Virus record (IMG/VR): IMGVR_UViG_3300009082_000017
Location: 64,001 to 128,000 of that record
Origin: a virus
Reading direction: 5' to 3' (one strand)
Length of the DNA stretch: 64,000 nt
Part shown: piece by piece, positions 748 through 63,469 of the stretch
Layout of the letters: every line of letters begins with the position of its first letter
Position numbering within the stretch: position 1 is the stretch's first letter
Translations under genes and position numbers: made by a program
Notes under the pieces: generated by a model
Databases searched by the model: none
Told to the model about the DNA's origin: nothing
Seen by the model: only the letters and a program-made list of their open reading frames with translations

Positions 748-815
748 CCACACCAATAAAACATCTATTTCATGGCACTTAACAGATAATCATATTTAAA
801 TAAAAGGAGAAAATA

Positions 816-1439
816 ATGCACACACATGCAGAGATTTACTTGGAAAGCAACGAAAATTGGCAAGAACAGGTCGAAGATATTTTGTCACAGTATGATGCAA
901 ATTTAGAAATTCAAGAAGAAAAAGATGAAGATGGCAACCTTTATTGGTGCAACCCTAACGGAATTTTTGATTGGTATGAAATTGGTGGTAGATGGACTGG
1001 ATCACATGGCAATTATAATCCTGAAGAAGATATTAGGAATTATGAGAAGTGTAGACTTTGTGATGGTACAGGATTACGCAATGATGAAATTGGACTAAAA
1101 CACAGACAAGAAAATCCTGATTACAAATGTAACGGATGCTATCATTATAACAGAGATACCGGAGTGGATGAGCCAGGATTCTTTGGTGTCGGAATGGCCT
1201 TGAAGTGGCCTACTGATTGGTTCAATCATGAAAGTAATATTATTCCGATTGAAGAAATTGACGAAAAATTAGATTGTGGCACTATCTTTTTCAATGGTGA
1301 TTATTGGGAAAATGAAGAATGGGATTATGACAATAAAAAATTCAAACCAAACAAAGATTTTAACGGAAACGTAAAAGAATTTTTAACTAAAAATAATATT
1401 ACTACCGGCTTTTTGGTAACAGTTGATTATCACTGGTAG
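816..1439 (+). CDS. hypothetical protein with DnaJ-like CxxCxGxG zinc-finger insert
   Basis: CRLCDGTG...CNGC; DWYEIGGRW motif; AAGGAG SD; bounded by dyads 756 and 1446. Confidence 0.75.
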   Translation: MHTHAEIYLESNENWQEQVEDILSQYDANLEIQEEKDEDGNLYWCNPNGIFDWYEIGGRWTGSHGNYNPEEDIRNYEKCRLCDGTGLRNDEIGLKHRQENPDYKCNGCYHYNRDTGVDEPGFFGVGMALKWPTDWFNHESNIIPIEEIDEKLDCGTIFFNGDYWENEEWDYDNKKFKPNKDFNGNVKEFLTKNNITTGFLVTVDYHW

Positions 1440-1492
1440 TACCCCATGAAATTTCCATTTCATTAGACTATATAACAGAAGGAGACAAATAG

Positions 1493-2047
1493 ATGAGCGA
1501 AGAAATGATTTTACGAAAAGAAATGTGTGGTTCACACCTTATTCAAAGAATTGAAAAGCCTTATGGTGTTCCTAGTGATATTGACTTTTCTAACACTATA
1601 TCAGTTGATGGGTTATCAACGGAAGCAAAAACAATATTAAAAACTATTTATCGTTTTGATTATATGGGATCGGCAGAATTTGAATTTGGTGCAATCCCAA
1701 CCGCTTTTAGATTTATGGCAAAACAAGCGCACGCTAAGAACCTTGTTGCTGGAAGTGTAGGAAATGTTTATTATATTACTCCTAAACCTTATGAGCAAGA
1801 AGTAAAGGTACGCATTGAAAGACTGAGACAAGATGAATATAGTTTTAGATTAAAAGAATGGTGTGGACTAAAAGACGCTTTACTTCCAACAAAAGAATCT
1901 TTTGGCAGTAAGTCTATTGGATGGTTTGAAATTGATAATGGTTTTATGTTTTTCGTTGATAAAGAAATGTTTGAAAATAGTTGTAATTTATTTGGGATTA
2001 AAGTAAAACAATTACCCCATGAAACAGCAATTTCATTGATTTTTTAA
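1493..2047 (+). CDS. hypothetical phage protein
   Basis: 184 aa, AAGGAG SD, DYMGSAEFEFG motif; C-terminus reads through the dyad at 2019. Confidence 0.75.
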   Translation: MSEEMILRKEMCGSHLIQRIEKPYGVPSDIDFSNTISVDGLSTEAKTILKTIYRFDYMGSAEFEFGAIPTAFRFMAKQAHAKNLVAGSVGNVYYITPKPYEQEVKVRIERLRQDEYSFRLKEWCGLKDALLPTKESFGSKSIGWFEIDNGFMFFVDKEMFENSCNLFGIKVKQLPHETAISLIF

Positions 2048-2294
2048 AAGGAGATTACAATGGAAGAAAAAGGCGATTGGTCACAAACTGATATAACCAA
2101 AGTCACAGATGATACATTAGACTTATGGAAAAGAATGCTAGATAAAGCCAGAGGCGACGATCCAGATTGTAAATTTGGTCTAATTCCTTTTAGTAGATAT
2201 GAAGTTTATCAAGAATTATTACGCAGAATTTAAAACTCCCTATTGACTTTAATAAAATGTCGTGCAATAATATATATTAGAAAGGAAAATAAAA

Positions 2295-2549
2295 ATGAGA
2301 ATCAATAAGCACACAGAAAAATTAAAAGCTGGTGATAAAATTACTACTGATTTTTTTGAGGGTGAAGAAAGTGTAGTAAGAACAATTATTTGGATTGAAG
2401 ATAATGCAAGGATGGGATCAGGCAGAGAAGTATTTTTCGATGGAGGTAATGAATGTCCTTGTTGTCATAGACTTCTTGGAACACCATTATCTGAACATGT
2501 AAGAGTCGGTGGCATTGATGCGGCTTGGGCTATTGCCATGAAACAATGA
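2295..2549 (+). CDS. hypothetical protein
   Basis: SD AAAGGA; stop lies inside the dyad at 2538. Confidence 0.7.
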   Translation: MRINKHTEKLKAGDKITTDFFEGEESVVRTIIWIEDNARMGSGREVFFDGGNECPCCHRLLGTPLSEHVRVGGIDAAWAIAMKQ

Positions 2550-2571
2550 TTTCATTGAAAGGAAATGAATT

Positions 2572-2845: not shown

Positions 2846-4447
2846 ATTACTATAACGAATAAAGAAAAGGAGATAATATTATGAAACAAACTTTAGTAAA
2901 TGTTACAGTAAGACTCGTGATCAATCATGATACTGATCTTGATGAAATTATTGACAATATGGATTATGACTTTTCAAATAAATTTATCACTGGGGCGGAA
3001 ATTGTAGATACTGAAATTTTAGACTATGAAGTTATTAATCCAGAAGAAGAGGAATAACATGAAAAAATATAGTAAAAAAGACACTATTATTATTACAGTG
3101 GATCAGGGATTAATTACAGAATTATTTTATGCCCCCAAAAGCATTAAGAATGTATTACAAATTGATTATAATGAAATTATGGAAAATCCAGAGGCTTATT
3201 GCCCCTCTTGCGAAGAAAGAGTAAAATGGACTGACGATTTGATTTGTCCTAATTGTGGATTTGATGCGATGGAACTTGAAAACAACTTAAAGTAACAACC
3301 ACATGAAATACAATTTTCATGGCAATGAAAGGACATAAATAAAATGAGAAGAAGATTGCCCAAAAACACTAAAATTGTTATTAGAAAAACTCAAATTAGG
3401 AGTTCTCAATTATGTCACAAATGTAATTCTAATATTGAAAAATTAAGCGAAGTGATCCTAGTCAGTAATGGTCGTGGTCAAAATAGAAAGTATTATCATC
3501 TTAAGTGTGCAGAATTAGAAGGGATTAAAAATGACAGAGAATGAAGAAGATAAATTAATGGTGGTATTAGAACATTTTTTATCGTTGCATGAAGCCGATG
3601 AAATTTACAATGCAATATTTGATATAACAGTTGACGAAAAACAGTTGAGTGCGATTCTGGATAGTTATAAAGAACCATGAAATTCTACTTTCATTGGAAA
3701 ACAAAAAGGAGATAATAATGGAACTAAAAATTAACGCTGATAGATGGAATAATCGTGATATGGAAAGCGTAACTGGAATTTATATTCGTGCTATGACCCC
3801 TGACGGAAAATGGGATAACGCCGATCTTGCTCAACTTGATAGGGATTCTATTATTGAGTGGACTAAAACCAGAGAAAATGGCGCATTGAACACTTTACTA
3901 ATTTTGCTCGGATACGATCAAGTAACAAACTAAACCCATGAAATGTAACTTTCATTAGAAAGGAGAATAAAATGAAATTTTTAAACAAATACGAAATAGA
4001 ACACGCTGGCAATTACATTTATTGGAGACCAGATTGGATAAAAGGAAGTCCAGTTTATGTTACTGGTCATCAAGCGAATTTTGATGTGCATTTTGACAAA
4101 AATACTTATCCTACTTTATTAAGAGATGTTCCTGAAGATGCAATATTTATGAGATTACATTCTTCTAATGTTTTCCCTGAACTATAACAGAAAGGACACT
4201 CAACAATGACCTGCAAACAAAAGAATCTACTCGAACACTACTTTTATCAAATACTCACTCGTCAAGGTATTGCTCCAAAGTTTTCTTTTATCCATAGCAA
4301 ATATAAAGACGATGGTTCAGAACTTATTCAAACCATTGTAACAAAAGATAATAAACCTGTGGCAGTATTTGATAGGGTTTATATTGACTCAAAAGGTTAT
4401 GTGCTTAATTATGAAATGATGTTGGCTTAACAGAAAGGACTATAACA

Positions 4448-4816: not shown

Positions 4817-5363
4817 CAGAAAGGGAAAAATAAAATGAGATGTAAACATCCAACCAAAGAAATTTTTAGTAGATGGGTAGATATGAATGGGCGTTCAATC
4901 AACTTCAGCGCCGGTATAGGAGAAGTCAAGAAAGAATATACTTGCCTAGCTTGTGGTAAAGTCGTAAGAAAGCCCAAATCAGAATAACAGTCAACGAAAT
5001 ACCACTTTCATGTGGTTAACAGAAAAGGAGAATAGAATGACAACTTATACAGTTTCGTTTGTAAAAGATGCTTATGTAACAGTAGAAGCAGATAGTGTGG
5101 AAGAGGCGGAAGAATTGGCAACGAAAGAAGTCAATGATCGTGGAGTTGATTGTGAAAGTAAATGGCAATTAGATGAAGTTATTGATGAGTAACACTCAAT
5201 AAAATTTATATTTCATGGTGAAGTAAACCCAAACATCTATTATAAATAGATCAGGGTCTAGAGATTGCGATTTACAATCAGTTTGAATAAATTCAAACAA
5301 AGGAGTGAAATTGCTCCAATAAATTATATCATTCATGGGAAAAATAAAAAGAAAGGAGGTCAA

Positions 5364-6575
5364 TTGATTGTTAATCGCATTGAAAAACATTGCATTAAAA
5401 GGAACACTCCATTATGGAAAGTTATAGATCAAAAATGTTGGGAAGCCAAAAGTTTATATAATTGTGCTAATTATATTATCACACAAGAATTTAAATCTAC
5501 TGGAAAGTGGATTAGATATTATAGTCTTGACAATATGATGCAAAGTACTTTACAATACAAACGATTAGGTTCTCAGGCTGCGCAGAACACATTGGTTTTA
5601 CTTGATAGAGACTGGCGTTCATTTTTTAAAGGAATCAAACAATGGTCTAAAAAGAAAGGAGAAGGATTTTTTGGTAAACCAGAAATGCCTTTCTATAAAA
5701 AGAAAAATGGTAGAAGTGTTTTAATGATAAAAAATATTCAATGTAGAATAGAAGGGAATAAACTTATTTTTTCTTGGCTACCATTAAGAAAATTTAGTGG
5801 TATTCCCACAAAAGCAACAGGAAAATTAATGCAAGTGCGTTTTGTTCCAAAAGGATCATGTTATTATATGGAGATAGTTTATCAAATAAACATTCCTGAC
5901 CAAAAGAAATTTAATAATCGCATTGCAGGAATAGATTTAGGCGTTAATAATTTTGCCACTATTGTAAACAATATCGGTCTTAGACCAATTTTTGTTAAGG
6001 GTAATATTATTAAATCTATGAATCAGTATTATAATAAAGAACGTGCTGAAATATCTAGATCAACTGGAATGGTCTGGAATAATAGAATGAGGAGATTAAC
6101 AGATAAACATTTGAAAAAATTAGATACTTACACCCATACAGTTAGCAAAAGAATTATAGAATATTGTTTAGAAAATAATATAGATACACTTATTGTTGGG
6201 CTTACTAAAGAATGGAAGGATGGAATTAATCTAGGACACGTTAATAATCAAAATTTTGTATGTATTCCTTATGATAAATTTATTCTTCAGTTACAATATA
6301 AATGTGAAAACATTGGAATAAGATTTATTATGAATGAAGAAAACTTTACATCTGGTACAAGTTTTCTTGATAATGAATTACCTATTGAGGAAAACTATAA
6401 TATTAAGCGTAGGATTAAAAGAGGTTTATTTAAATCTAACAATGGCGCAGTTATTAATTCCGATGTTAATGGTGCATATCAAATTGTTAAGAAAGTATAC
6501 CCAAACGCTTTTACAGAAATGTTTAGCAGAGGGATTAGAGGGTGTGATTTACACCCAATTAAGCTAGTAATCTAG
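5364..6575 (+). CDS. tnpB: IS200/IS605-family RNA-guided nuclease TnpB (no TnpA)
   Basis: RuvC-I GIDLG, WKDGINLG..NNQNF, EENFTS, RuvC-III NSDVNGA; probable TTG start at 5364 after AAGGAGG, matching the start of the paralogue at 33399. Confidence 0.9.
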   Translation: MIVNRIEKHCIKRNTPLWKVIDQKCWEAKSLYNCANYIITQEFKSTGKWIRYYSLDNMMQSTLQYKRLGSQAAQNTLVLLDRDWRSFFKGIKQWSKKKGEGFFGKPEMPFYKKKNGRSVLMIKNIQCRIEGNKLIFSWLPLRKFSGIPTKATGKLMQVRFVPKGSCYYMEIVYQINIPDQKKFNNRIAGIDLGVNNFATIVNNIGLRPIFVKGNIIKSMNQYYNKERAEISRSTGMVWNNRMRRLTDKHLKKLDTYTHTVSKRIIEYCLENNIDTLIVGLTKEWKDGINLGHVNNQNFVCIPYDKFILQLQYKCENIGIRFIMNEENFTSGTSFLDNELPIEENYNIKRRIKRGLFKSNNGAVINSDVNGAYQIVKKVYPNAFTEMFSRGIRGCDLHPIKLVI

Positions 6576-6622
6576 ATAATAAAGAAGTGATTTTTTGCTT
6601 CGTAAATTCTTCGTTTTATGAA
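6535..6622 (+). ncRNA. putative omegaRNA / right end of TnpB element 1
   Basis: Hairpins GGGTGT-gattt-ACACCC, CTAG-taat-CTAG and GAAG..CTTC, conserved with compensatory changes in the paralogue at 34558-34644. Confidence 0.6.
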
Positions 6623-7142: not shown

Positions 7143-7440
7143 AGGAGGGGTGGTTCACGGTTTGAACCCGAATAATTACTAAGTATTAATAACTACTAAG
7201 TAGTTAAATAAATACTAATAAATAATCAATCAAAATCAAAAAGGCAAAAACCAAGAGCGCCTTTTTGATTTATGAACACAAATTTTTAATGCTTTTAATT
7301 TAAAGGAGTAAACAGTTTACAACCATGAAACTATTGTTTCATTGAAAATAATTTTAGATTAATTTAAGGTAATGTTCTATTGTAATTAAAAAATTAGGAC
7401 TGTATACTATTAGTATAAATAAATAAGAAAGGAATAAAAA

Positions 7441-8022: not shown

Positions 8023-8339
8023 TTCACCCATGAAAGTTCTATTTCATGGTGTTATAAGAAAGGATTAAAATGAAAATCTTAAAAATTCAAGATATTACAC
8101 CCTTTCGTGGTAAAGAACCTAATGATATGGATTTATTAAATTGTTTGGTAGAATATAACGATGGAGTTACTGGAAATTCATATATGTATCGTGCTAAATA
8201 CGATAAACTTATTTTTCAAGCAGACCTAATTAAAAAATATAATATCACGGAATATGAATTAAATGTGTTTACAGATTTGATCAGAGATGAAATTGATACT
8301 GAACATTTTTATAATGAAACTTAAAGAATAGGAGAAAAA

Positions 8340-8741: not shown

Positions 8742-8783
8742 TACCCATGAATTTACCGTTTCATTAGAAAAGGAGAAAAAGAT

Positions 8784-8981: not shown

Positions 8982-9250
8982 TAAAGAGGTTGAAAAAATG
9001 AGCAAATATGAATATTTAATAGGGGAAACTGTGTCTTGGAAGGAACATATTGATACAGGTGGAGGCACATATAATTATTGCGAAGGAAAAGTTTTAAACG
9101 TAATTGGTAAAAATGTATTTTTTGAATCAGATGTTAAGTGGATTCCTTATATGCACGAATTAAAAATTATTGAAAAGACGACACAAATAACCCCATGAAA
9201 TTGCTCTTTTATTGAAAACATTAGAATTCTTAAAATTTCTAAAAAAACTA

Positions 9251-9279: not shown

Positions 9280-10400
9280 ATTGCTAGAAAAGGAGATGAA
9301 ATATGACAGATAAAATTAAAACATTAAAATTGTGGTCAAGTGAGTCATATAGTGTAGAATGGCATGAAAACACTATTGATATGGGTGATTATAACCCCGA
9401 AGAACAAGTAAATGTTTTATTGGGGCTAATATATAATCAATTACCAGGAGATGTTTTTGAGGCATTAGCAAAAAGATTGGGCATTACAGAGGAACGTTTA
9501 GCAGATGTTTGTCCATAATTCCCATGAAATAAGGTTTTTCATTGGGTAGTAAATAAAATTTTAAATATACAAAGAAGGAGATAAAATGGAAAAAAGTTAC
9601 GGTTCGGGTTATAATTGGGTTGTCACGGATAATGGGAAAGTCGCTCGTTTCGCAGTAGGCGATCATTATGCTGGTGGTTTGTGGGATTTACAAAAAGAAG
9701 GAACACAAGACTCTTTAGAGAATAAAAGTACTCGTGCGTATCTTTTTGAAGCAATTTATAGTATTTCGCCTAGAGAGTATTTTGAATTAAAAGAAGATGT
9801 TGGAAAAGATTTTATAGAACTATTAGAAAAACAAATATCAAATGATTTAAAAAATGAAAAATAATCCCCATGAAATGAGACATTCATGGGAATAAAGAAA
9901 GGATAATGAAATGGACAAAAAAGAATTGAAAGAATATTTACGCAATAACTTAGGCGTGACAGTTTTTATCAATGATGGCGATCTTCAAGTGGATATTACT
10001 TTAGAGGATGAAGTTATTGCCAGCGCAGGAACTTGTATGCCGTTTGAAAATGCTCGTTATGATGATTATGGTAATCGAATTTAACCCCATAAAACAACGC
10101 TTTCATGTGGAAAGGATAAAATGAAAATAAAAGGAAAGCAAATAGTTGAAGTAGAAATTACTGAAAGAGAATTGGCTTATGCTCTTATGGACATAGTGCG
10201 TAAAAAATTGAAACTTGATAATAGTTTTGATGATGCCGGTTGTGATTGGGTTACCGATAAAGACAAAACATATATTGGAAATAATAAATGGTTAATATCA
10301 AATAATCCTGAAATAGCAAGCATGATCAACACAGTAAATTTATTGATCTATAATCAAACTTTGGGAATATAATATCCAACCTTAAAAAATCTCAAAACGC

Positions 10401-10846: not shown

Positions 10847-11334
10847 TTCCTAATAAAACGTTCATTTCATGTAGTAGAAAGGTAGGATAAAATGGAACTA
10901 ATCAAATCTAGATTAAATTTTGCTATAACACTAGAAGAATTAAAAGTTCTAGTAAAATTATTGGGCAGTATGAGTAGATCAGATGCCACCAAATTAGGTC
11001 TGACTCATGAAGAAGATGACTTAATTCTAAATATTTTTAGAAAGATTGATGAAATACTTATAAAAACACGATGAAATCACTATTTTATTAGAATAAAAGG
11101 AGAAAATATGTTAATTTTTATGGTTTCTGTAAATATTGTTGTTGGATTTGCAATTTTATTAGCATTTTATGGTATGATGAAGGCATGGATTGACACTGAC
11201 AATACGTTAGGATTGGTAATATTGAAAATCATTGGGTCAGTTTGTTGCCTTGCAATAATTCCTTGTTACATTAGTTTATGGTTGGCTACACCGCTATAAA
11301 ATTTCCATGAAATTCGCATTTCGTTGAGAATTTT

Positions 11335-11410
11335 GCCCTTGTAGCTCAGTTGGATTAAGAGCAATTCTCTTCTAAAGAATAGGTCGCGTGTTCGAGCCAC
11401 GCCAAGGGCG
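11335..11410 (+). tRNA. tRNA-Arg (anticodon TCT)
   Basis: Acceptor stem GCCCTTG/CAAGGGC, D arm TAGCTCAGTTGG, anticodon stem ATTCT/AGAAT with loop CT-TCT-AA, T arm GCGTG-TTCGAGC-CACGC; no encoded CCA. Confidence 0.93.
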
Positions 11411-11723
11411 CTAGGTAAAATTATTGAAAGGAGATATAACACAATGCCATTAACAGATGCCGAAGTAATCAAACTAATACCAAAAAAGGCTTTCCTAGAA
11501 TACGAAGAAGCAAAGAAATCAAAGAAGGTAAACTTCTACGACTACAACGCAATGAGGCAATACGCAAAACAAAATAACCTACTACGATTATATAAATTGG
11601 ATTGGAGCGACTACATGGATATGGTCGCAGGTTACAAAGTGCTGATGTACCATTACGGATTGGAATTATGGTTCGATAATAGGTGTGATGAGAAACCTAA
11701 AAAATCAAGAAAGGTGGTAGAAA

Positions 11724-12325: not shown

Positions 12326-13090
12326 TAAATAAAAAAGGAGATTAATATGAAAATTACAGAATTGATCGAGAAGTTAGAACAAATTGCCGTTGATAATGGT
12401 GATATGGAAGTAGTATTACCACAGTCTTGTACCGATGAAATTACTTTGGAAGAAAGAGCATGGAACGCAGATATTAGTGAAGTAGAAACTTCTGGTACTG
12501 GTGCTGATAAAGTAACATTAATCTATTAAATCAAAAGGAGAATATAAAAATGAAAAACTTAAAACTCACACAGGATTCACAACGTAAGTGGAACGTCATT
12601 AACACAATCACTGGTTTGGTTGTGACTGGTCACTTCACCAATAAGTCTCTTGCTCTGGACGCTATGAAGAATTATAAAGAAGATGTTGTAACAGCAACCA
12701 AAAAGTCGATCACGATGTCACGCAAAGACCAGATCCGTCATGCTCGTGCAAAGGCACAGGGTATTAGTTATGCTGACTATGTTGCAAAATATGTGGTTGG
12801 AGGGTAAGATGAAAATCAATTGGAAAGCGATTTTTGGGCGTTTACTAATTTTGGTAGTTTTAGGGACTTTAACCTTTTTGTCATTTTCCCTTGGATGGGA
12901 TCTTTATGCCAAAGCATTAAGTACAGTTTTTACGGCGATTTTCCTTATTGCCATTGGCTTTGAACTGATGTTTTCATGAAATTAGTATTTCGTGGGATTG
13001 GGCAAATTAAAATTTACATTATAGGAGATTAAATGCTATTTTTCTGGATTGTGATATTGATTTTGTTTGCGGGTTGTAAGTAATTGGGTA

Positions 13091-13772: not shown

Positions 13773-14263
13773 TTATGAATTTACAAGATTTTTTTAGTAA
13801 AACAAATAAAGTTATTGATCTTGAAAATTCACATTATCGTTTTCAAGAAATTAGACCTAGAATAATTTGTCGGGATGGTGTTTCATTATCTGTTCAAGGA
13901 AGCGAAACACATTATTGCCAACCGCGCATTAATGATTATGCCAATTATTATGAAGTAGAAGTTGGATATCCATCAATAAGACCACCTGAAACATGGAAAC
14001 AATATTTTGATGGTGAATGGCAACAAGTAGGAATTATTGGATGGATTAAAAGAGTTTGGAAAGAAAGGTCTAACATTTTCTATTCCTTGAAAAATTTGAA
14101 GGGATTAGGCAAGTGGAAGATTAAAGATATTCTTTCTTTGGAAGATAATGCAACAAGGAGTGTTTATGGTTATATTCTTAGTAGTTTAGTTGAAGATTTT
14201 ATTAATACTCATGGTGGAATAGATGAAGAAGAAACTTTTAAAAAATCTACCATGAAAGAGTAG
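13763..14263 (+). CDS. conserved phage hypothetical protein
   Basis: CRDGVSLSVQ..HYCQPR..VEVGYPS; stop inside dyad at 14252. Confidence 0.7.
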   Translation: MGIIMNLQDFFSKTNKVIDLENSHYRFQEIRPRIICRDGVSLSVQGSETHYCQPRINDYANYYEVEVGYPSIRPPETWKQYFDGEWQQVGIIGWIKRVWKERSNIFYSLKNLKGLGKWKIKDILSLEDNATRSVYGYILSSLVEDFINTHGGIDEEETFKKSTMKE

Positions 14264-14533
14264 ATTCATGTGGTTGGTGGAAAGGACAGTTATGAAAAAA
14301 TTTATATCAACACAGGGCGACTTAACAGTCGAATTAAGTCAGAACACAATCTTTATTGAAGGCACATATATTTTCAATGGTGATATTCATAACCTTCGTG
14401 TTTGGTTGGATGGTGTGGACAGCTTACTTAACAGTAATAGAAATATAGATGCCGATGAAGATATGTGGTTGCCTGAAGATATTTATGGTACTTCGGATAA
14501 TGTGGAATAATAACCCAATGAAACGAGGATTTT

Positions 14534-14917
14534 ATGGGAATGTTTGATAGTGTTGGTTTAGAATGTAATTTGCCAGAAAATATTGAACCATATAGAAAAG
14601 GTTGGTGGCAGACAAAAAGCCTTGGTAGACATATGGATCAATATTATATTGACAATGATCATATTTATAAAGAATTGTGTCATTATGAAGATGTCCCAGA
14701 GCAAGAAAGAACATTCTATGGAGAACCGGAGTGGGATAAAGATGATTTTTATAAATTAATAGGATCACAAAAACGAATAGTAGATAAAACTGTTGTGGTT
14801 GACTATACTGGCGAAATAGAATGCCATGCATATGTTGAAGAAAAACAATTAATGGTTCGATTATTATTTACTTTTGTAAACGGAAATTTATTGAAAAAAG
14901 AAGTTTTGACACCATAA
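14534..14917 (+). CDS. hypothetical protein
   Basis: MGMFD start lies in the right arm of dyad 14518; TAA stop lies in the left arm of dyad 14914. Confidence 0.75.
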   Translation: MGMFDSVGLECNLPENIEPYRKGWWQTKSLGRHMDQYYIDNDHIYKELCHYEDVPEQERTFYGEPEWDKDDFYKLIGSQKRIVDKTVVVDYTGEIECHAYVEEKQLMVRLLFTFVNGNLLKKEVLTP

Positions 14918-15204
14918 AATAATGGTTTCATGGAGAAAAAATGAAAACAAAAATGTATGAAGTATTTTTTGAAATTATTGGAAAGCATTTAGATGCTCAT
15001 AAATTTCTGAACGCTAATGAAGATTGGCTTCTAGAAATGTATAAGGATTTGTCTAATAATATTCCCAATTCTACAATCAAAGATATTAAACGACTTGACC
15101 TATATAACATGGGTCACATTGACTATCATCATAAATTCGCTCTGCATTGTGATGAATTATATCAGAAAAACACCCCATAAATTATGTATTTCATGGGAAA
15201 TTAC

Positions 15205-16049: not shown

Positions 16050-17510
16050 ATGAAAGAAATTAATCCATTTTTACTTACCGACTTCTATAAGGTTGGACAT
16101 GTGTTTCAATATCCAAAAGGAACTACCCTTGTTTATTCAAATATGACACCAAGGCAATCACGCTTAAAAGGTGTTGATAAGATGGTGGTTTTTGGTATTC
16201 AGTGGTTTATTAAACGATACTTATTAGAATATTTTAATGAGAATTTCTTCAATCGTCCGAAAGAAGAAGTTATGGCTGAATACAAACGTATGATTTTTTA
16301 TACATTGGGTGGTGATTTGCCATCCTATGAACATATTGCTAAAATCCATGATTTAGGATTTTTGCCAATCGAAATTAAAGCATTACCAGAAGGATCAACA
16401 GTCTCTATGCGTATTCCTTTTCTTACGATTGTAAATACTAAACCAGAATTTTATTGGTTAACTAATTTTATTGAATCTTTGATTTCTTCTGTTATTTGGC
16501 AACCCTGTACAAGTGCCACTATTGCTTACGAATATCGTAAGATTTTGAATAAGTATGGCACAATTACAGGAATGTCTCCAGATACAGTTCAATGGCAAGG
16601 ACATGATTTCTCATTTCGTGGAATGAGCAGTCCTGAAAGTGCTGCGACTAGTGGTATGGCTCATTTGCTTTCCTTTACTGGAACCGATGGTATCCCTGCT
16701 ATTGCAAGACTTGAACAGTACTATAATGCAAATGTTGAAAAAGAACTTGTAGGTGCTAGTATTTCTGCTACGGAGCATTCTGTAATGAGTGCCGGTGGAT
16801 TTGAAAATCAATTCGATACATACAAACGATTGATTACGGAAATCTATCCAAATGGTATGCTTGCTATTGTTAGTGACACCTGGAATCTTTGGGATGTATT
16901 AACTGATTTTATGCCAAGGCTTAAGAATGACATTATGTCTCGTGATGGTAAAATTGTTATTCGTCCTGATAGTGGAGATCCTGTTTTAATTATTTGTGGA
17001 AATCCTGCTGGAAAAACTGAAGAAGAGCGTAAAGGTGTTGTTGAGCTTCTTTGGGAAGTGTTTGGTGGAACTCTTACTTCTACCGGCTATAAACTGCTTG
17101 ATTCTCATATTGGAACCATTTATGGCGATAGTATTACACGAGAACGTTGTGAAGAAATTTGCTCACGTTTAGAGAAAAAAGGTTTTGCTTCTCAGGCGGT
17201 TTTAGGAATTGGTAGTTATACTTACCAATACAATACTCGTGATACTTTTGGAACAGCAATGAAGTCAACTTATGTTGAAATTAAAAATATTGGTATGGCA
17301 ATTTTTAAACATCCTGTTACAGACGATGGAACCAAGTTTTCTGCAACTGGTTTGTTAGAAGTTGTAAAAGATGGTAATAGAGAATTTGTGTTGAAAGAAA
17401 ATGTAACTTGGGATGAAGAAAAACAAGGCGAATTAAAAACTGTATTTTTGGATGGAAAGTTGACAAAAGATTTTACTCTGGCAGAAATTAGAAATAATCT
17501 TTGGGGTTAG
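16050..17510 (+). CDS. nicotinamide phosphoribosyltransferase-like protein (NadV/Namat-like)
   Basis: TDFYKVGH, HDFSFRG, ATEHSVM, VSDTW, IRPDSGDP, IYGDSIT, GIGSYTYQ..TRDT. Confidence 0.93.
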   Translation: MKEINPFLLTDFYKVGHVFQYPKGTTLVYSNMTPRQSRLKGVDKMVVFGIQWFIKRYLLEYFNENFFNRPKEEVMAEYKRMIFYTLGGDLPSYEHIAKIHDLGFLPIEIKALPEGSTVSMRIPFLTIVNTKPEFYWLTNFIESLISSVIWQPCTSATIAYEYRKILNKYGTITGMSPDTVQWQGHDFSFRGMSSPESAATSGMAHLLSFTGTDGIPAIARLEQYYNANVEKELVGASISATEHSVMSAGGFENQFDTYKRLITEIYPNGMLAIVSDTWNLWDVLTDFMPRLKNDIMSRDGKIVIRPDSGDPVLIICGNPAGKTEEERKGVVELLWEVFGGTLTSTGYKLLDSHIGTIYGDSITRERCEEICSRLEKKGFASQAVLGIGSYTYQYNTRDTFGTAMKSTYVEIKNIGMAIFKHPVTDDGTKFSATGLLEVVKDGNREFVLKENVTWDEEKQGELKTVFLDGKLTKDFTLAEIRNNLWG

Positions 17511-18791: not shown

Positions 18792-18827
18792 TTTCAATGA
18801 ATGGAACATTTCATGTGAAATTGGCAC

Positions 18828-19503: not shown

Positions 19504-19550
19504 TCCCCATGAAAAACTTATTTCATGTGGTATAAAAGAGAGGATAATGA

Positions 19551-19955: not shown

Positions 19956-20013
19956 CTACCACATGAAATCTGGCTTTCATGGTGTAGTATAAATATAATA
20001 AAAGGAGAATGAA

Positions 20014-20487: not shown

Positions 20488-21388
20488 CTCCATGAAACTG
20501 CGCTTTCATGGGAAGATCAGAAAGGATTGATATGAAATCTACAAAAGATATTTCTCAAAAGTTAAAAGAAGCTGAATTGCTTCTTGAAAAATTTAATTTA
20601 GAATATATGGACAAATATGATTATGGCGACCCAGAATGTGGCGAAGAAGAAGTGTCGCTAAAGAAGGAAATAGAAATTTTAAAATGGGTTCTTGGTAAGT
20701 AATACGGGGTAATGAAAGGACGATTTCATGGGAAAACAAGCAGTAATTTATTTCAAAAATGGAACTAAAGATTGGGTTGATCCGATTGACGATGAATCTA
20801 GAGATATATTTTATGGAGATTCTGTTATAATTGTTACCAATGGAGCGAATAATAAATATGTTTATGATAAGTTGTCAGTTGAAAAGATTGAATTTATTGA
20901 ATTGGATAATATAGAATGACAAAAATGATTTGTACTTGTAAAGAATTTACTGAAAATATGTCGAAATTAAATGACTCGACAATGTATGCGTTCCTTCATG
21001 GACATCAACTTGGAGCAGGGTTTGTATATTTTAGATTTTGTCCATGGTGTAGCAAAAAATTATTTGATGACGATATTAATACTTGGTCTGGTTCTGGCGA
21101 AGATAAACAAGGTGAACTAAATTATTAATTGAGAAAGGAATAAAAATGGTACAAAATTCAAATTTGGGATTAAAGATTGATGGTCTCGAAGGTTGCCCTT
21201 GGTGTGGCAGTCATGTTTTGAAACATTATGAGAACAATCAATTTAAGGCATTACAATGTCAATATTGTTTAGCTATTGGAGGAATATTGCCACATATTCA
21301 TTTTGCAGATAGTGAATATTTAGATTCCAGTAGGTGGCAATTAGTATATTCAAGATGGAATAAAAGATTACAATAAAATAACAATTTC

Positions 21389-21823: not shown

Positions 21824-22182
21824 TACCTAATGAAATGTAGGTTTCATGGTAATAAGAAAGGAGAAGTTCTATGCCAGATAACGAATCATTAAAATATTCT
21901 GGTCTTTCAAATACAGATATAAATATGATGATTGCCAAGTTGTTAAAACTAGATTTTACTAGATTTAATGATGTTGATAATCCAGACTCATGTGGCGATT
22001 GGGCGTATACTGGGTCAATTTTAGACGAAGTTATGTCTAAACATCCTATTGAAATTCATAATGTAGAAGCAGGATTTTTAATTTATGTGGATTGTTGCAG
22101 AGAGTTTTCAGGGGAAGATTTAAAAAGATTGTTATGTGAAGTGTGGTTGTCAGATTATGATTAATGAGATTTATATTCCATC

Positions 22183-39189: not shown

Positions 39190-39235
39190 AAGATTTGTTT
39201 CATGGTATAAAAATTAGATAAGAAGGAGATTAAAC

Positions 39236-39409: not shown

Positions 39410-39469
39410 TTATTTGTCACATGAAATCAATATTTTATGGTGCTAAACACCATAGAAAGGATAAATCTA

Positions 39470-53151: not shown

Positions 53152-53787
53152 GTGAAATTAGACCAAATTTTTGAATTAGGATATTTAATCAATTTAAAAG
53201 AAAGAGTTGATCGTTGGGAATTATGCGATCATGAGTTCTATAAAATCAATTATTATCCACAACGATTTGAAGCAATTAAAAATGAAGTAGGTAGAGTTGG
53301 ATGCTTTCTTAGTCATTTAGAAATATTAAAAAAAGCACAAAGAGAAAATAAAAATGTTTTAATAATGGAGGATGATGTAGAGTTTGATGAAGATTGCAGA
53401 CAAGTATTGGAAGCGTCTCTAGACGAACTTTGTGATTTAAATTTTGATATGGCTTATTTCGGTGGGAATATTCTCCGTCCATTTTTCCAAGTCACAAAAC
53501 ATTGGGCAAGATTAAGCCATTGCCAATCAACCCATTGTTATAGTATTCATCGAAATTTTTTATCAACAATTATAAATTTTCTTGAAAATAATTCTACTCA
53601 AAAAACAGGATTGGCAATTGATCAATTATATGCAGACTATCTTATTCCTAATTGTAAAGCTTATATTATTATGCCCATAATCGCAAGACAACGTTCGGAT
53701 TTTTCAACTATTGAAAATAGAGAAGTAACTTATGATTTGCCGGTTAAAAGATATTGGCATTATTTGGTGAAAAATGAAAAAGTGTAA
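53152..53787 (+). CDS. GT25 family glycosyltransferase
   Basis: INLKERVDR, GCFLSH, IMEDDV. Confidence 0.85.
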   Translation: MKLDQIFELGYLINLKERVDRWELCDHEFYKINYYPQRFEAIKNEVGRVGCFLSHLEILKKAQRENKNVLIMEDDVEFDEDCRQVLEASLDELCDLNFDMAYFGGNILRPFFQVTKHWARLSHCQSTHCYSIHRNFLSTIINFLENNSTQKTGLAIDQLYADYLIPNCKAYIIMPIIARQRSDFSTIENREVTYDLPVKRYWHYLVKNEKV

Positions 53788-54619
53788 AACAATTATATTC
53801 TCTCGCAATCGTCCTCTTCAATTAACCTTATGCCTTAAAACATTATTAAATCATTGTACGGACATTTTACAACAATCAAACATTACAGTTTTATACAGAA
53901 ATGATGAGGAATATCGGCAGTCTTTTGACAATTTAATGTTGGAATTTCCCCAAATATCGTTCAAAAAGGAGGAAAATTTCAAAAAAGACCTGCTTTCTTT
54001 GCTACCACATGAAAGCAACATTTCATGGGGTAAAAATGAAGGTTTTGTCACTTTTGTTGTCGATGATCAGATTTTCACCGAAGATTTTTCAATGAAAGAA
54101 GTTATTTCAACACTTGTTGAAAATCAGGATTGTATAGGGTTTAGTTTACGTCTTGGCAAAAATTGTGTACGATGTTTCCCTTATGATTGTGAGCAAGCAA
54201 TTCCAAAGACAGAAAAAGTTTCAAAGAATGTTGTAAAATATAATTGGCAAGAAGCAGAGTATGACTTCAATTATTGTTTAGAGTTATCTGCAAGCGTTTA
54301 CAGGGTAAACGACCTTATAGAGATGTTTGAGATTTGCGATTATGACTCACCCAACCACCTCGAATCAATTATGAGTTCGTGTTTTTATAAGGACAAACCA
54401 AACCTTTTAATGTTTGAAAAATCGGCATCCTTCAGTTATCCGATGAATAAGGTTCAAACATCACACCCAAATAGGAGTGGAGATTTCAATCCTGACACTC
54501 TTAGATTAATTTATGAAAAGGGTGGAAGATTTGAAAATAAGCAATTTGATGGTTATATTAGTAATGGAGCACATGAGATTCCAGAAAGTATAAATTTGGT
54601 GGACACATATGGCAAATGA
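53774..54619 (+). CDS. GT-A fold putative glycosyltransferase containing an in-frame dyad site
   Basis: FSRNRPLQL, FVVDD, FSLRLG; dyad at 54005-54030. Confidence 0.7.
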   Translation: MKKCKTIIFSRNRPLQLTLCLKTLLNHCTDILQQSNITVLYRNDEEYRQSFDNLMLEFPQISFKKEENFKKDLLSLLPHESNISWGKNEGFVTFVVDDQIFTEDFSMKEVISTLVENQDCIGFSLRLGKNCVRCFPYDCEQAIPKTEKVSKNVVKYNWQEAEYDFNYCLELSASVYRVNDLIEMFEICDYDSPNHLESIMSSCFYKDKPNLLMFEKSASFSYPMNKVQTSHPNRSGDFNPDTLRLIYEKGGRFENKQFDGYISNGAHEIPESINLVDTYGK

Positions 54620-58077: not shown

Positions 58078-59253
58078 TTGAATTTCAAAAGGAAGGAGGA
58101 ATACATTATATATAAAACGATTTTTGTTCCAGTGAAATGCAATAAAAAAGATTTTGAATACATAAAAACTTTAAATAAAATTTCTGCAAATGTGTGGAAT
58201 TATTGTGTTGAAATAGACAAAGAAAATGGTCAAAAATTAACTTTATCGCAATTAGAATTTATGACTAAAAATAAATTTCCATTACATGCAAAAGGAATAC
58301 ATCATATTGTTTTTAAATATTTGAATGCAAGGAAGTCAATGTGGGAAGTTATTAAAAAGAATAAAGACAATGGAAATAAAATAACCTTACCATATAGATT
58401 AAAAGAATATATGCCCACTGGTTGGGATTCACAGGCAATACATCCAGAATATGACAATAATAAAATTAGGCTTACTTGCATTTTGGGTAGAGGACAAATT
58501 GTTTGCAAAGTTAAATCAATACCCAACAATATCGCAGAGATTGAATTGGTCTATAAAGACGAATATTATTTATCTATCAAATATAAAGAAGAAAATGATA
58601 CAAATTTAATTCAATCGGATAATATTGCTAGTATTGACCTTGGAGAAATTCATGCAATTACAAGCATTGACAAATTTGGGAATTGTGTTATAGTTACTAA
58701 TAGAAAGATTCGTAGTTTAATTAGATTAAAAGATAAAAGACAAGGCGAATTACAATCTTTAAGATCAAAATGCGTCAAAGGAAGCAAACAATCTAAAAAA
58801 TATACAAAAGCAATTTATGATATTAAATATGAGTTTGATAACAAAATTTTGGATGCGCTTCACAAACAAACAAATTTATACGTCAAATGGTGTAGAAGTC
58901 ATAAAATTTCGAAAGTTTATTATGGAGATTTAGATACCACTACTAGAAACAGCAAAGGCAAGAAAAGTCAAAAAATAAATCATAAATTAAGTATGTGGAG
59001 ATTTGGTATATTAATTAAACAACTTCAATATAAACTTTTTCAATATGGTATTGTAATGGAAGAAATAAGTGAAGCATATACAAGCCAAACTTGCCCAAAT
59101 TGTGGCAATAGAAAAAAGACGGGAAGTAGAAACTATTCTTGTAAGTGTGGATACATTCAACACAGAGATATTGTAGGTGCAATAAATATATTGAATTTTA
59201 ATACAGATACTGATTTAAAAATGTATAAAAACAAGGTATATCTACAAATCTAG
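58078..59253 (+). CDS. tnpB: TnpB family RNA-guided nuclease with C-terminal zinc ribbon (no transposase)
   Basis: SIDLG, YGDL, EAYTSQTCPNCG, CKCG, HRDIVGAINI; start uncertain (AAGGAGG near 58093 is followed by ATT/ATA). Confidence 0.88.
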   Translation: MNFKRKEEYIIYKTIFVPVKCNKKDFEYIKTLNKISANVWNYCVEIDKENGQKLTLSQLEFMTKNKFPLHAKGIHHIVFKYLNARKSMWEVIKKNKDNGNKITLPYRLKEYMPTGWDSQAIHPEYDNNKIRLTCILGRGQIVCKVKSIPNNIAEIELVYKDEYYLSIKYKEENDTNLIQSDNIASIDLGEIHAITSIDKFGNCVIVTNRKIRSLIRLKDKRQGELQSLRSKCVKGSKQSKKYTKAIYDIKYEFDNKILDALHKQTNLYVKWCRSHKISKVYYGDLDTTTRNSKGKKSQKINHKLSMWRFGILIKQLQYKLFQYGIVMEEISEAYTSQTCPNCGNRKKTGSRNYSCKCGYIQHRDIVGAINILNFNTDTDLKMYKNKVYLQI

Positions 59254-59375: not shown

Positions 59376-61021
59376 AAGTAGCAAATATATTATTTGCTCA
59401 AATTATTTAAGGAGAAAATATGAACAACGAATATCAAGACTGGCGATCCATTCTCAATCCACCTACAAAAGATGGTGAGATTTGGATTTATGCTTATATT
59501 TGGGACGACGGATGGTGTATCATTAGAAAATATTATTACATGTCTGAGGGATTCAAAAAAGGTACGGCAAGATGGATGCCCATTATAGTTCCTCAACCAC
59601 CTACCGATGTAGATTTTAGTTTATATGAAACCCCATAAAACGACTGTTTCATGCGCAAAAAAAGGAAAATAAATGAAAAAATCTAAAAAAGCAAAATTAG
59701 TAATCACAGAAAAACAATATACTAAAAAAGAATGTCAACTTACTTGCCCACATTGTCATACTGAATTTCATTATATGAATGGATTTGATGAAAATATTTT
59801 ATTATACAAATGTACTCAATGTGGAAATTCTATTAGACTATATGATTAAGGATAAAATAAAATGCCCCTAGATAGAGACCTAGAAGATACTCGTGACGAA
59901 GAATCATATCAAAACTATTCTGATGAAAAAGAAGAAGCATTTTGGGATGAGGTTGATTATGAATATGATAGAATGATGGATGATAAAATGGATAAAGAAA
60001 ATTGGTGAAAAATATGACTGATCAACCGGCTGATAGTTATTGTAAAGGATGTAAATTTTTGAAATTAATTTATGAATTGGATGACAGGCAATATTATTTT
60101 GGATGTGAAAGCAAAATGACTTGTGATAAAATTAAAGAAAGTGAAGAAAACAAAAATGGCAGAGAAAACTAACCCTATCTATAAAATTTGTACTTGTTGC
60201 CAAACCCCATTCCACTATACTAAAAAATGGAATGACAAAATTCTCGAACAAGAAGCCATCAAACGATATGGTGATACTGTGGTGAAGCAAGAGGGTGTTG
60301 AAATTTGTAAGAAGTGTTGGGATGGGTTGGAGAAACCGGAAGGAAATAAAAATGATTGATGCTGAAAAATTAAGAATTATTACTAAAGAAGGTAGTATTA
60401 AAAAAGAAAAAACAATTTTGGAAAAAATCAATGATTTTATTGAATATGTAGAAAAAGAAATAAAATATAAAGCGTCAAATGGATTTTATTCTGCAAAAAT
60501 TGATCCTATTAATTTTGATAAAAATTTAATAGACACAAAAATAATCAATGAAATTAGAAAAAAACTAGAAAATTTTGGCTATAAAGTTGAAATGGATTAT
60601 ATTAGTGATGATATTTATATTAGTTGGTATAATTCATGAAACCGGTATTTCATGTGGTAAAAAGGATAAAAAATGACAAAAAATAAATGTATATATGAAA
60701 AATGGGGTGTATATTTTGCTCAGGGATGTACGGATCAACATATATCAGAGCACACTTGTAGTGATTGGTGCATATGCCCAAAATGCGGAAAAGAAATTGA
60801 ATTTTATGTTGAGCCAGAAGAGTACAGAGAAAAACAACCAGAAATTTATGAGGATGTAACTAGTGAAAAATGGTTCGCTGAAATAGTTTTTGAAGATGGA
60901 GAGCGCATTAAAGCTATTGGGAATTCTAAAATGGATGTTACTTTGAGATGGAATAGACTGCAAAGAGAATTATTATAACCCCACGAAAGAACCATTTCAT
61001 GAACTTGATTAAATTGGTATC

Positions 61022-61050
61022 TTGACAAGTACATCAAAGTATGATAAACT
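61022..61050 (+). promoter_or_regulatory. sigma70-type promoter
   Basis: TTGACA-17 bp-TAAACT with TG extension. Confidence 0.8.
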
Positions 61051-61592
61051 TATTAAAATTGAATTTACATTAAGGAGAAAATATTATGAGTAGCAATAAA
61101 GGTATGAAAAATTTAGATATTGAAAGTATGAAAGGCGATATTAATAGTGACGAGAATACAACAAATGCAATAGACGACTTTGAACCAACCGACGCAGAAT
61201 TACAAGAAATGATGAAAGAACTCCACATCGAAGAAGAAGCAGAAACCAAGAATAAAATTTTAGAAGACTGGTCGGAAGTGACTTGTATTTCTTGCTTAAA
61301 GCCAGTAGACTTAATGAAGGCAGTTTTCATTGATGAAGCACCTTACCATAAACATTGTGCAGAAGAAGAGTTGCGATATGAAGACTAGTATTACACAAAA
61401 CGAATACGAATTACTTACTTTTTTAAAATCGCAACAAGATCAATTGGAACGTATGTCTAACCGTATGTATTATTATGCAAAGAAACTCTTAGAATTAGAA
61501 GATGACAACTGGCTCACAGATTACTTTAATGATACTATTGGTGTTACGGCGTTTTTGAATCAAGTTGGTATTGATATTGATACGAAAAACCC

Positions 61593-61621
61593 TTGACAGA
61601 TAGCGAATAATGTAGTAAACT
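61593..61621 (+). promoter_or_regulatory. sigma70-type promoter of the tyrosine recombinase
   Basis: TTGACA-17 bp-TAAACT, followed by AAGGAGG. Confidence 0.8.
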
Positions 61622-61646
61622 TATCTTATAGAAAAGGAGGCATCAC

Positions 61647-62597
61647 ATGGTTACTGAAAAAAATAAAAAAGAACTCAAAATAATTGAGAAAAAAGAATTA
61701 GATAAATTCTTGCATCGCAAGTCTATTAAGTCTGAGCATACTAGGAAGTCATACAAAAATTGCATTGGACAATTGTTTGATCATTATAATATTGAAACGA
61801 TAGAAGATTATCAAAAACTCACATTGTCTAATTTCGAAGATTATCTTAATTCTTTACCAATCAAAGATGCCTCGTATAATCAACACCTTCGCTCTCTAAA
61901 GGTTTTCTCGTCTTGGTTAAAGAAGCATGATAAAATTCAAGAAGATATCCTCCAACCAATTAAATTGACTAAGGTAAACGCAGTTACTGGCGATAAAGAA
62001 TATGATAAGAAAAGACGAGCGAAAGAAAAGTTATATCTTACAGATAATGAAATTCAAAAAATGATTGCTGTGTCAAAAAATATAAATTCTAAATTAGCTA
62101 TTGCCCTTATGGGGTATATGGGACTTCGCAGAGAAGAACTTGTTGGTTTGACTATCACAGATGTTCATGGAGATTTCTTAGGGATTCCAGGGAAAGGCGG
62201 TACATACGAAGAAAGAAAAATGCCTCCTGCTGTAAAGTTTTTGGTAAATGAATATTTGAAAACCAGAAATAATAATTCTGAATATCTTATCGTTTCAAAA
62301 GTTGGGCAACATCAAATTACAAATACCAATTCTATTTATGAAAGGATCAAATCTGCCGGAAGAAAAGCTGGAATTGATGCCGAAAAAATGAAATTAGTTA
62401 CCCCACATACAATGAGACGAAGTACTGCTTGTAATGCTGTACTTAGGGGTGTTCCAAGTACTGTAGTCAAAGAGATGCTTAGGCATCAACGACAAGTTAC
62501 AACTGATATCTATTTGGAAGCGTTAAAAGGATCTGAGGCAGTTGATGCAGCTTTTGATTCACAACCAATGCCCGATATGTCAGTTTTGATGGTATAG
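61647..62597 (+). CDS. XerC/XerD-like tyrosine recombinase
   Basis: SAM-like N-domain (SEHTRKSY...LRSLKVFSSWL); catalytic GLRREE (R), GKGG (K), HTMRR (HxxR), LRH, TDIY (Y); 316 aa, no arm-binding domain. Confidence 0.93.
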   Translation: MVTEKNKKELKIIEKKELDKFLHRKSIKSEHTRKSYKNCIGQLFDHYNIETIEDYQKLTLSNFEDYLNSLPIKDASYNQHLRSLKVFSSWLKKHDKIQEDILQPIKLTKVNAVTGDKEYDKKRRAKEKLYLTDNEIQKMIAVSKNINSKLAIALMGYMGLRREELVGLTITDVHGDFLGIPGKGGTYEERKMPPAVKFLVNEYLKTRNNNSEYLIVSKVGQHQITNTNSIYERIKSAGRKAGIDAEKMKLVTPHTMRRSTACNAVLRGVPSTVVKEMLRHQRQVTTDIYLEALKGSEAVDAAFDSQPMPDMSVLMV

Positions 62598-63469
62598 GAG
62601 AATAACATGGAAATCGAATTATCTAAACTAGAATGGGAAAGATTTTTAACCTACCATGAAGAAAAATATGGTGAGTATGGATGGTATCCAAATTTAACCG
62701 GAGTAAACGTAGTAGATAGAAATACTGGTAAGTTGGTTGGATTTCGTCAAAATATTCCAGAGCGATGTTTTATTTTGGAAGAATGGTTAGTGGGGACACC
62801 ATGGGAAAAATTTGTAAGTGTAACCACGGTTACTAATTAAAAGGATAAAAAATGAATATTTTTAATATGTTGATAATTCTGTTCCTTGTGTTAATGTTTT
62901 TTATTAGTTTGACTATTGATTCAAAATATTATAATAAATCGACAGGGGAGTTGCCATAATGACACATGTTACGGTTCATCAACTTACAGCAAGAAATAGT
63001 GAGAAAGTTTTCTTAAATGTCGATAATGATGTTTATGGATGTGTTAGTGTTTGGGGATCTTGTTATCAAAGACGAACATTTTTAATTCAAAAAGATTGTG
63101 ATTTTTATCTTATGCAATTTGAAAATGATGAGTATTATAAAGAATGGCAAGAAAGCGAATCTGGTAAATTTTGGAAAGATGCAAGAATAACAGAAATTTT
63201 ACCAATTATTAAAGATGATTATTACACCATGAAATAGAGATTTCATTCGGTTGAAGAAAGATAAATTATGAGTAAACCTATTATTACAGAAATTAGTGAC
63301 GAAGATGGTCTTTATGAAATTAGAGAAGATTATTTGGGTAAAGAAATTATTCCTTGTAAAGACGTAGAAAAATGGGGGAATAATAGTTTTTTTGGAAATA
63401 AATTGAATGGATTTATGTCTGGCCATTTTATAGTGGATGGTAGAGAAACTTGTTTCTTTGCTGTAAAAT

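Follow-up and report, generated by a model that had tools for sequence, protein, structure and literature searches.

How gene exchange at the boundaries of phage genes can leave the genomes intact has been a matter of debate ever since special linkers were postulated by the modular theory. In heterospecific lox/FRT cassette exchange, common arms are combined with differing spacers, like sites exchange with like, and a non-palindromic spacer sets the orientation. The XerCD-type pdif sites of Acinetobacter recombine if they have identical or nearly identical 6-bp spacers, and where two plasmids have both flanking spacers in common, single dif modules are replaced between them (PMC13141974). The window analyzed here comprises 64,000 nucleotides (bases 64001-128000) of the 160,042-bp phage record IMGVR_UViG_3300009082_000017 from IMG/VR (G000); it has approximately 31% G+C and carries almost all of its genes on the plus strand. 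As in the Acinetobacter modules, accessory genes are split by core sites with a 6-bp spacer, but the sites reside in a phage and not in a plasmid, and they number approximately 100 instead of a handful. These sites, 26-bp palindromes that are called joints in the following, may be fixed, address-coded recombination joints, an interpretation of the sequence data which is considered to have an even chance of being correct.

A search of the window for ATGAAA-N6-TTTCAT with at most two mismatches yielded 74 matches, compared to 25.6 +/- 5.4 in shuffled sequences, and none of 100 shuffles reached 74. With at most one mismatch, 54 sites were obtained, 28 of them exact, while four more with two mismatches (15177, 21373, 26685 and 27115) possess good CCCC/GGGG flanks. 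The total thus amounts to 54-58 sites in the window and to 94-98 in the whole genome; the number of about 64 dyads given for the window by a first-pass annotation was slightly high but fair. Spacer length is strictly kept. Genome-wide, a 6-bp spacer is found in 43 exact and 94 near-exact sites, whereas each of the other lengths between 3 and 10 bp gave at most one exact and eight near-exact sites. A 7-bp spacer occurs in a single case (9524), just as had been annotated. The extended consensus is the palindrome YCCM-ATGAAA-B....V-TTTCAT-KGGR, in which both arms follow one common consensus and the centre neither begins with A nor ends with T. Its 10-6-10 geometry with the strict 6-bp centre agrees with the earlier proposal that the dyads resemble core sites of tyrosine recombinases.

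Gene junctions hold 86 of the 94 sites, which bears out their annotated placement, including the exceptional copy at 54009. This joint (54005-54030) is the sole copy within a gene, a conserved open reading frame (ORF) at 53774-54619, so that its centre GCAACA, retained in three relatives, is coding sequence as well. In the plus-strand region, an ORF of at least 45 codons ends inside the site or no more than 15 nt upstream of it in 66 of 81 cases (81%). The stop codon is located in the left arm at 24 of these 66 sites, mostly as the TGA of ATGAAA, and in the centre at six, while at some sites the ATG of the right arm serves as start codon. Beside minus-strand genes, the site likewise adjoins the stop codon of the gene upstream, the design being identical on both strands. 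Regions of small genes are rich in sites, and the modules for structure and replication are poor in them. A Shine-Dalgarno (SD) sequence of its own is present in many units and a promoter-like sequence in a few; eight promoter-like sequences follow sites, compared to approximately four expected, which is a weak enrichment at most. Many genes display the hexamer TAACAG between joint and SD sequence (e.g. 778-790, 1470-1480 and 5016-5024), and a TAGAACA/TGTTCTA motif flanks joints upstream of the window (G000 55-63 kb). A tRNA-Arg gene (TCT, 11335-11411) lies directly after the joint at 11307.

Variation within the arms points to a protein that reads duplex DNA. At core position 3, the arm pairs G/C, A/C, G/T and A/T were counted 43, 21, 16 and 0 times, with 4.2 A/T doubles expected, and the flank pair -1/+1 was CG in 34, CT in 27, AG in 24 and AT in six sites. 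Pairing is thus not maintained and weak half-sites avoid each other, which is to be expected of a dimer that binds cooperatively to duplex DNA. A hairpin of RNA or DNA is unlikely in the absence of covariation between the arms. The first-pass annotation had already noted that arm variants occur without regard to pairing and had suggested a dimeric protein, and the absence of doubles is in agreement with this view.

The terminase of G000 is 32-37% identical to the terminases of SPbeta and of Thomasclavelia, Staphylococcus 'SPbeta-like' and large temperate Clostridioides difficile phages, and its replication genes encode a DnaE-type polymerase III alpha subunit and a RecD2-like helicase. The phage is thus SPbeta-like, and it is probably temperate. 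No close isolate was found for it, as a 15-kb megablast against GenBank phages gave no match, and scans of metagenomes and genome contigs with an alignment of its 316-aa recombinase revealed neither close relatives nor a prophage. An exact-motif scan of viral contigs yielded one true relative, G001, a 143-kb fragment with approximately 90 sites that contains no counterpart of G000 77-103 kb. Further relatives are contigs from other samples that were reached via homologues of the 316-aa recombinase.

The most telling part of the joints is their centre. Among the 98 centres of G000 there are no duplicates, no reverse-complement pairs and no palindromes, while column shuffles lead one to expect 2.9, 2.9 and 2.5, respectively (8.3 in total), and none of 3000 shuffles reached zero (P<0.001). 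In G001, one such case was counted against 8.5 expected (P=0.002). The two genomes have 48 identical centres in perfectly collinear order; four syntenic pairs differ at one base and up to six at two. Centre matches were on the same strand in 44 cases and in reverse complement in none. Divergence per site is at most 5% for the centres, 5.6% for the core arms and 41% for the outer arms. Pairs with the same centre show an ungapped identity of approximately 0.95-1.0 over the 18-bp core, which drops to the random level within 20-30 bp, with slot-specific identity reaching weakly to approximately +45 on the right. Of 46 same-centre pairs, 33 lack homology in both flanks, and 19 of the 27 slots bounded by the same two centres are without nucleotide similarity and often differ in length. 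As in the dif modules, the DNA between shared flanking spacers has been replaced.

All other relatives exhibit AT[G/A]AAA-N6-TTT[C/T]AT at gene junctions, and the centres GCAACA, GTGTTC, CGACTG, CCGGTA, GTTCAA, TAGAGA, TGCCCG, CAGATA, CGAAAA and CAAGAG recur in them in the same order, while the ORFs between the joints are mostly singletons across five genomes. CGACTG was found in four genomes, and its neighboring genes on either side are different ones in each. A contig with a recombinase of 58% identity still has TAAGGA, GTTCAA and CAAGAG in syntenic order, and a relative with 46% identity has kept the core arms while the outer arm has changed from CCCC to approximately ACA. The ends of similar blocks in the diverged pair G000/G001 are enriched approximately 6-9-fold near sites, though fuzzy. 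Taken at the level of sequence comparison, these data support the view that the units in which relatives gain, lose and replace genes are delimited by the sites.

A sharper picture emerged from cultured phages. SPbeta (NC_001884; L063-L065) contains 34 TAAAA-N6-TTTTA sites, compared to at most three for any other spacer length, and the TAA of the arm is often the stop codon of the preceding gene. In the NC_001884 record, most of these 34 joints bear no annotation, and a few fall on 'stem_loop' features. SPbeta and the isolate SPbetaL7 have 27 of 36 centres in common. Ends of high-identity blocks between them lie within 12 nt of a site in 17 of 64 cases, versus approximately 1% for random positions, a baseline computed in SPbeta alone, and several blocks begin or end exactly at a site. 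As far as can be judged from these aligned genomes, the bounding of exchanged units by joints holds at base-pair resolution in cultured SPbeta-family phages. Together with the replaced slots of G000 and G001, this is what the first-pass annotation had anticipated for breakpoints of gene gain, loss and reordering in relatives, as far as gain and loss are concerned. In other SPbeta-like phages, enrichment of the TAAAA/TTTTA arms is weaker or absent. A search of the SPbeta-family literature, which was not exhaustive, found no description of these dyads.

How might such sites work? The arms (10 bp, consensus CCCCATGAAA) would be recognized in double-stranded form by a protein of two-fold symmetry, most likely a tyrosine recombinase of the phage, and the 6-bp centre would act as overlap region. 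Unique and non-palindromic centres would allow exchange between the same joint of two related genomes and in one orientation only, the partner being a co-infecting phage or a resident prophage. Two exchanges would then replace the DNA between two joints without deletion, inversion or reordering elsewhere, and the array would represent a natural recombinase-mediated cassette exchange with approximately 100 heterospecific sites. This interpretation is based on four properties: the arms are generic, the length of the centre is fixed, within a genome the centres are unique and asymmetric and do not occur inverted, and between genomes they are better conserved than the arms. By analogy, these properties characterize core sites of tyrosine recombinases whose overlap chooses the partner. 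From them we infer the arm reader, the strand exchange at the centre and the requirement for centre identity. The inner arm (...ATGAAA) furthermore resembles the arms of the single-recombinase Xer sites difH AGTTATGAAAA and difSL TTTCCGAAAA (PMC5357621). The logic of arms and spacers is the same as in engineered lox/FRT exchange. Unlike the latter, which is artificial and employs two sites with 8-bp spacers, the joints are natural, genome-wide and have 6-bp centres, and their mechanism is a proposal. The parallel to Acinetobacter pdif modules drawn by the first-pass annotation applies to the replacement of spacer-bounded modules. It does not extend to the arms, which share one consensus and, being symmetric, suggest one reader instead of the XerC/XerD pair, without C/D alternation. 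Moreover, every centre is unique per genome and fixed in its order across relatives, and the candidate enzymes are phage-encoded.

Two candidates for the reader were identified in G000 (Table 1). The 316-aa protein, correctly recognized as a Xer-like recombinase by the first-pass annotation, is intact and has a complete catalytic set (R161, E164, K183, H254, R257, H280 and Y289) that is invariant between two orthologues. The XerA model aligned over residues 21-291, and the XerA, XerC and XerD models span both domains with scores of 125.5 bits (cutoff 220), 77.4 bits (cutoff 335) and 66.5 bits (cutoff 330), respectively. The best match in the PDB is XerA 4a8e. On these predictions the protein is Xer-like but not an equivalog. 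It is present in every relative examined, though the relatives were found through it. Beside its gene, no convincing inverted repeat that might form a separate lox-like site was detected. An assignment to SPbeta YopR (MrpR) or YopP was rejected for want of any meaningful similarity. The 344-aa protein, a homologue of SPbeta YomM, possesses all motifs (R, HxxR, W and Y), and its gene adjoins those of a RuvC-like resolvase and the tape-measure protein in the tail region (G000:15909-17482). By residue content, both recombinases are predicted to be catalytically complete.

Several observations weigh against recombination by exchange at the centres. In at least one case, the CATCTA joint, a right-hand leader of approximately 24 nt is linked to the centre and not to the gene downstream, which differs; one breakpoint therefore lies near the SD sequence or start codon, outside the centre. 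Gene families occur in slots with different centres on both sides and exchange was therefore not strictly in register; the ORF at 816-1439 occupies the slot CATCTA>TTTCCA in G000 and GAACGA>CATCTA in G001, its homology ending at the sites. Clear co-segregation of arm variants with the flank on the same side, which would locate the crossovers to the centre, was not seen. A clear SPbeta homologue of the 316-aa protein was not found, and in SPbeta YomM (L063:40301-41302) and YopP (L064:28691-29767) the motif expected to be HxxR, with the second catalytic arginine, reads HxxK, which makes their activity uncertain. Finally, a selection that keeps centres for their 'exchangeability' would be of second order.

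Some of these points would suit conserved linkers for general homologous recombination, a serious rival, which is judged unlikely but far from negligible. The 26-bp site, often together with the leader and SD sequence, would then be an identity patch of the Botstein type, similar to the elements named PeSLs (promoter-early stem-loops). Phage or host machinery would perform the crossover, the arms would serve another purpose such as regulator binding, and an identical centre would merely extend identity from 10 to 26 bp. The breakpoint mapped in the CATCTA leader and the weak identity to the right of the sites are in line with this assumption, as is the fact that cassettes also change slots while sharing nothing but generic arms and SD sequences. 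Suitable proteins are encoded by both phages, namely a Holliday-junction resolvase and a Sak4-like annealing protein by SPbeta and the RuvC-like protein by G000, and an avoidance of duplicate or inverted centres would be selected under homologous recombination too. There is also a precedent in T4-type phages, where PeSLs are repeated intergenic elements that can drive modular shuffling, as proposed by homologous recombination, and, like the joints, mark boundaries of indels and replacements in accessory ('hyperplastic') regions (PMC2839356, PMC4122927). However, PeSLs are composites of a sigma-70 early promoter and a terminator, whereas the joint is a 26-bp protein-type palindrome that contains neither and has a position-specific centre. 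What homologous recombination leaves unexplained is the single strict 10-6-10 palindromic design of all joints, the exact 6-bp length of the centre and its conservation far above that of outer arms or leaders. In addition, 26 bp is short for efficient homologous exchange. In-register exchange by a recombinase is favored because both the pdif spacer rule and the behavior of the centres match it.

Quite improbable is the assumption that the joints are sites of a regulatory protein, a repressor or roadblock at every gene end that silences or insulates transcription, and that their link to mosaic boundaries is a by-product of intergenic location. The first-pass annotation had named the stoperators of phage L5 as a possible alternative. 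These are asymmetric 13-bp sites in one orientation relative to transcription and without a variable centre, and we know of nothing that ties them to mosaic boundaries. Stoperators and joints have in common that a short site is repeated many times in narrow intergenic spaces all over the genome of a temperate phage, but the joints are palindromes used beside plus- and minus-strand genes alike. The position of the joints at the 3' end of nearly every small gene, upstream of promoters where present, and their dimer-site signature could reflect regulation in a probably temperate SPbeta-like phage. Such a role would recall SPbeta MrpR (YopR), a protein with tyrosine-recombinase fold that acts as master repressor and binds the repeated element SPBRE (PMC10516654). 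MrpR belongs to the same phage lineage. In chromatin affinity purification with sequencing (ChAP-seq), however, MrpR gave peaks only at ten promoter regions containing the 15-bp SPBRE (PMC10516654). The element derived from these ten regions, approximately CAAATAATATGTATA, is unlike the dyads of SPbeta or G000, which occur in the latter at approximately 100 gene ends instead of approximately ten promoters. Thus, the known repressor role of MrpR does not account for the joints, and the repressor alternative is weakened by this finding. By contrast to both G000 recombinases, which retain all catalytic residues, MrpR is devoid of four of seven. The lack of a clear enrichment of promoter-like sequences after the sites also argues against a regulatory function, which moreover offers no reason why centres should be unique, non-palindromic, never reverse-complemented and kept in position amid changing genes.

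The first-pass annotation favored an integron-like system, in which circles of gene and site are excised and reinserted and the array is reshuffled. The location of the sites behind the 3' end of each gene, as in attC, the occurrence of some gene families in different slots and a recombinase gene within the array could be taken for features of such a system. This proposal was not confirmed and is very improbable, as the joints are collinear, each centre stays at its position in all relatives examined and genes are replaced in register. Neighboring sites differ in their centres, which disfavors excision or reordering, and the conservation concerns arm sequence and not pairing, without hairpin selection of the attC kind. 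No attI/Pc platform is evident, many units having their own SD sequence and some promoter-like sequences. The 316-aa recombinase is not IntI-like either, since the integron-integrase model scored 40.8 bits against a cutoff of 265.

An RNA-level hairpin that serves as terminator, processing site or mRNA stabilizer is extremely unlikely. In its favor, a position directly after stop codons is typical of 3' hairpins, and the stem-loops of PeSLs act as terminators (PMC2839356). However, the left arm shows G-to-A changes (21) about as often as the right arm shows C-to-T changes (16), with doubles absent, less than half of the sites have Watson-Crick partners at the outer positions, and an RNA loop would not be expected to keep its own sequence at each place in the genome. 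Intrinsic terminators, looked for at the sites, were rejected, as there is no U-tract and terminator-like matches are not above the level of shuffles. An origin from REP/RAYT elements or IS200-IS605 ends was likewise rejected, because there is no Y1 (HUH) transposase and the centres are not copies of each other; PF01797 (Y1 transposase) is absent from G000 and G001, and the three tnpB genes are solo.

One of these tnpB genes belongs to an element that splits a joint (Table 1). The 3' end of this element (CCCATAAAT) mimics the left arm. Judging from this arrangement, its omega-RNA guide could correspond to the centre plus right arm of the joint, and the element could home to the same address in empty relatives. 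Auxiliary genes of the window (coordinates 16050-17510, 24441-25580, 28368-30482 and 37550-38584) include those for a NAMPT-like nicotinamide phosphoribosyltransferase, an ATP-dependent DNA ligase, an RNA ligase, a C5 cytosine methyltransferase and an enzyme of the GMP-reductase/IMPDH family. An intein is present in the gene for the DnaE-type polymerase of one relative (L053:19151-20909), and the 1066-aa polymerase of G000 gave no intein domain match.

Table 1. Joints, TnpB elements and candidate recombinases. Positions refer to the window unless indicated otherwise; 'G001' means that the same centre was found in the relative G001.
Feature	Position	Strand	Remark
Array of 58 palindromic joints and one 7-bp variant	752-63250		continues on both sides of the window
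Joint CATCTA	752-777		G001
Joint TTTCCA	1442-1467		G001
Joint CAGCAA	2015-2040		G001
Joint CAATGA	2534-2559		G001
Joint TACAAT	3299-3324		
Joint TTCTAC	3673-3698		G001
Joint TGTAAC	3934-3959		
Joint TACCAC	4990-5015		G001
Joint TTTATA	5195-5220		G001
Second tnpB	5265-6575 (region 5217-6619)		ends like the joint-splitting element at 33359-34640, with ...GTAAAT, then TCTTCG-TTTTAT at 6608-6619
Joint CTATTG	7321-7346		
Joint GTTCTA	8026-8051		G001
Joint TTACCG	8743-8768		G001
Joint TTGCTC	9191-9216		
7-bp-centre variant TAAGGTT	9520-9546		
Joint TGAGAC	9866-9891		
Joint CAACGC	10085-10110		syntenic G001 site differs at 1 base
Joint CGTTCA	10849-10874		G001
Joint TCACTA	11067-11092		G001
Joint TTCGCA	11303-11328		directly before tRNA-Arg
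Joint TTAGTA	12972-12997		
Joint CCTGAA	13290-13315		example in first-pass annotation
Joint GAGTAG	14248-14273		
Joint CGAGGA	14514-14539		
Joint TAATGG	14910-14935		
Joint TATGTA	15173-15198		2 core mismatches; followed by strong promoter-like site
Joint GGAACA	18793-18818		
Joint AACTTA	19505-19530		
Joint TCTGGC	19959-19984		
Joint CTGCGC	20488-20513		
Joint GGACGA	20708-20733		
Joint TAACAA	21369-21394		2 core mismatches
Joint TGTAGG	21826-21851		
Joint TGGGGA	22753-22778		
Joint CTGTTG	23575-23600		
Joint TGTCCA	23847-23872		
Joint TGCCAG	26211-26236		
Joint GTGTAA	26681-26706		2 core mismatches
Joint TAGTGC	26910-26935		
Joint TGAGCA	27111-27136		2 core mismatches
Joint GGAGAA	28076-28101		centre also SD; right arm gives ATG
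Joint TAACCC	31313-31338		
Joint TCTCTG	31894-31919		
Joint TAGCAT	32343-32368		
Solo TnpB element splitting a joint	33359-34640 (tnpB 33399-34598)		lies exactly between left arm and centre
Left arm ATGAAA of split joint	33359-33364		TnpB element follows
Centre TGATAC and right arm TTTTAT of split joint	34629-34640		
Joint GAGGGA	35353-35378		
Joint CACAGA	36994-37019		
Joint CTTGTA	37252-37277		
Joint CTAGAA	37481-37506		
Joint GTGTCA	38577-38602		
Joint GATTTG	39182-39207		
Joint TCAATA	39417-39442		G001
Joint GAACTA	40293-40318		G001
Joint GGACTC	40698-40723		G001
Joint TATAAC	42082-42107		syntenic G001 site differs at 1 base
Joint CGAATA	42697-42722		syntenic G001 site differs at 1 base
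Joint GCAACA	54005-54030		inside gene 53774-54619
Third, more distant tnpB	58078-59253		no joint at ends
Joint CGACTG	59631-59656		kept in four genomes
Joint CCGGTA	60632-60657		centre recurs in relatives
Joint GAACCA	60979-61004		followed by promoter-like site of recombinase operon
Xer-like tyrosine recombinase, 316 aa	61647-62597	+	candidate catalyst or binder
Joint TAGAGA	63225-63250		centre recurs in relatives
Second Xer-like tyrosine recombinase, 344 aa	G000:15909-16943, outside window		whole-genome search; YomM homologue

In the joints of G000, the linkers of the modular theory become explicit, as one design in approximately 100 copies, each with a private address that is preserved better than almost all of its surroundings. 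More generally, SPbeta-like phages may practice a natural genome-wide exchange in which approximately 100 heterospecific tyrosine-recombinase sites with unique, conserved 6-bp overlaps as addresses would let a phage recombinase trade any block of accessory genes between related phages in strict register, a tentative generalization that is rated somewhat below an even chance. If true, the 'modular evolution' of phages would have a molecular mechanism of its own; the system would extend the spacer-matching rule of the Acinetobacter dif modules to viruses and would supply ready-made orthogonal recombination sites. Since the same architecture exists in the genetically tractable SPbeta, the idea is directly testable. 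Should a recombinase indeed read the sites, phage mosaicism in this lineage would be an encoded function and not an accident filtered by selection.

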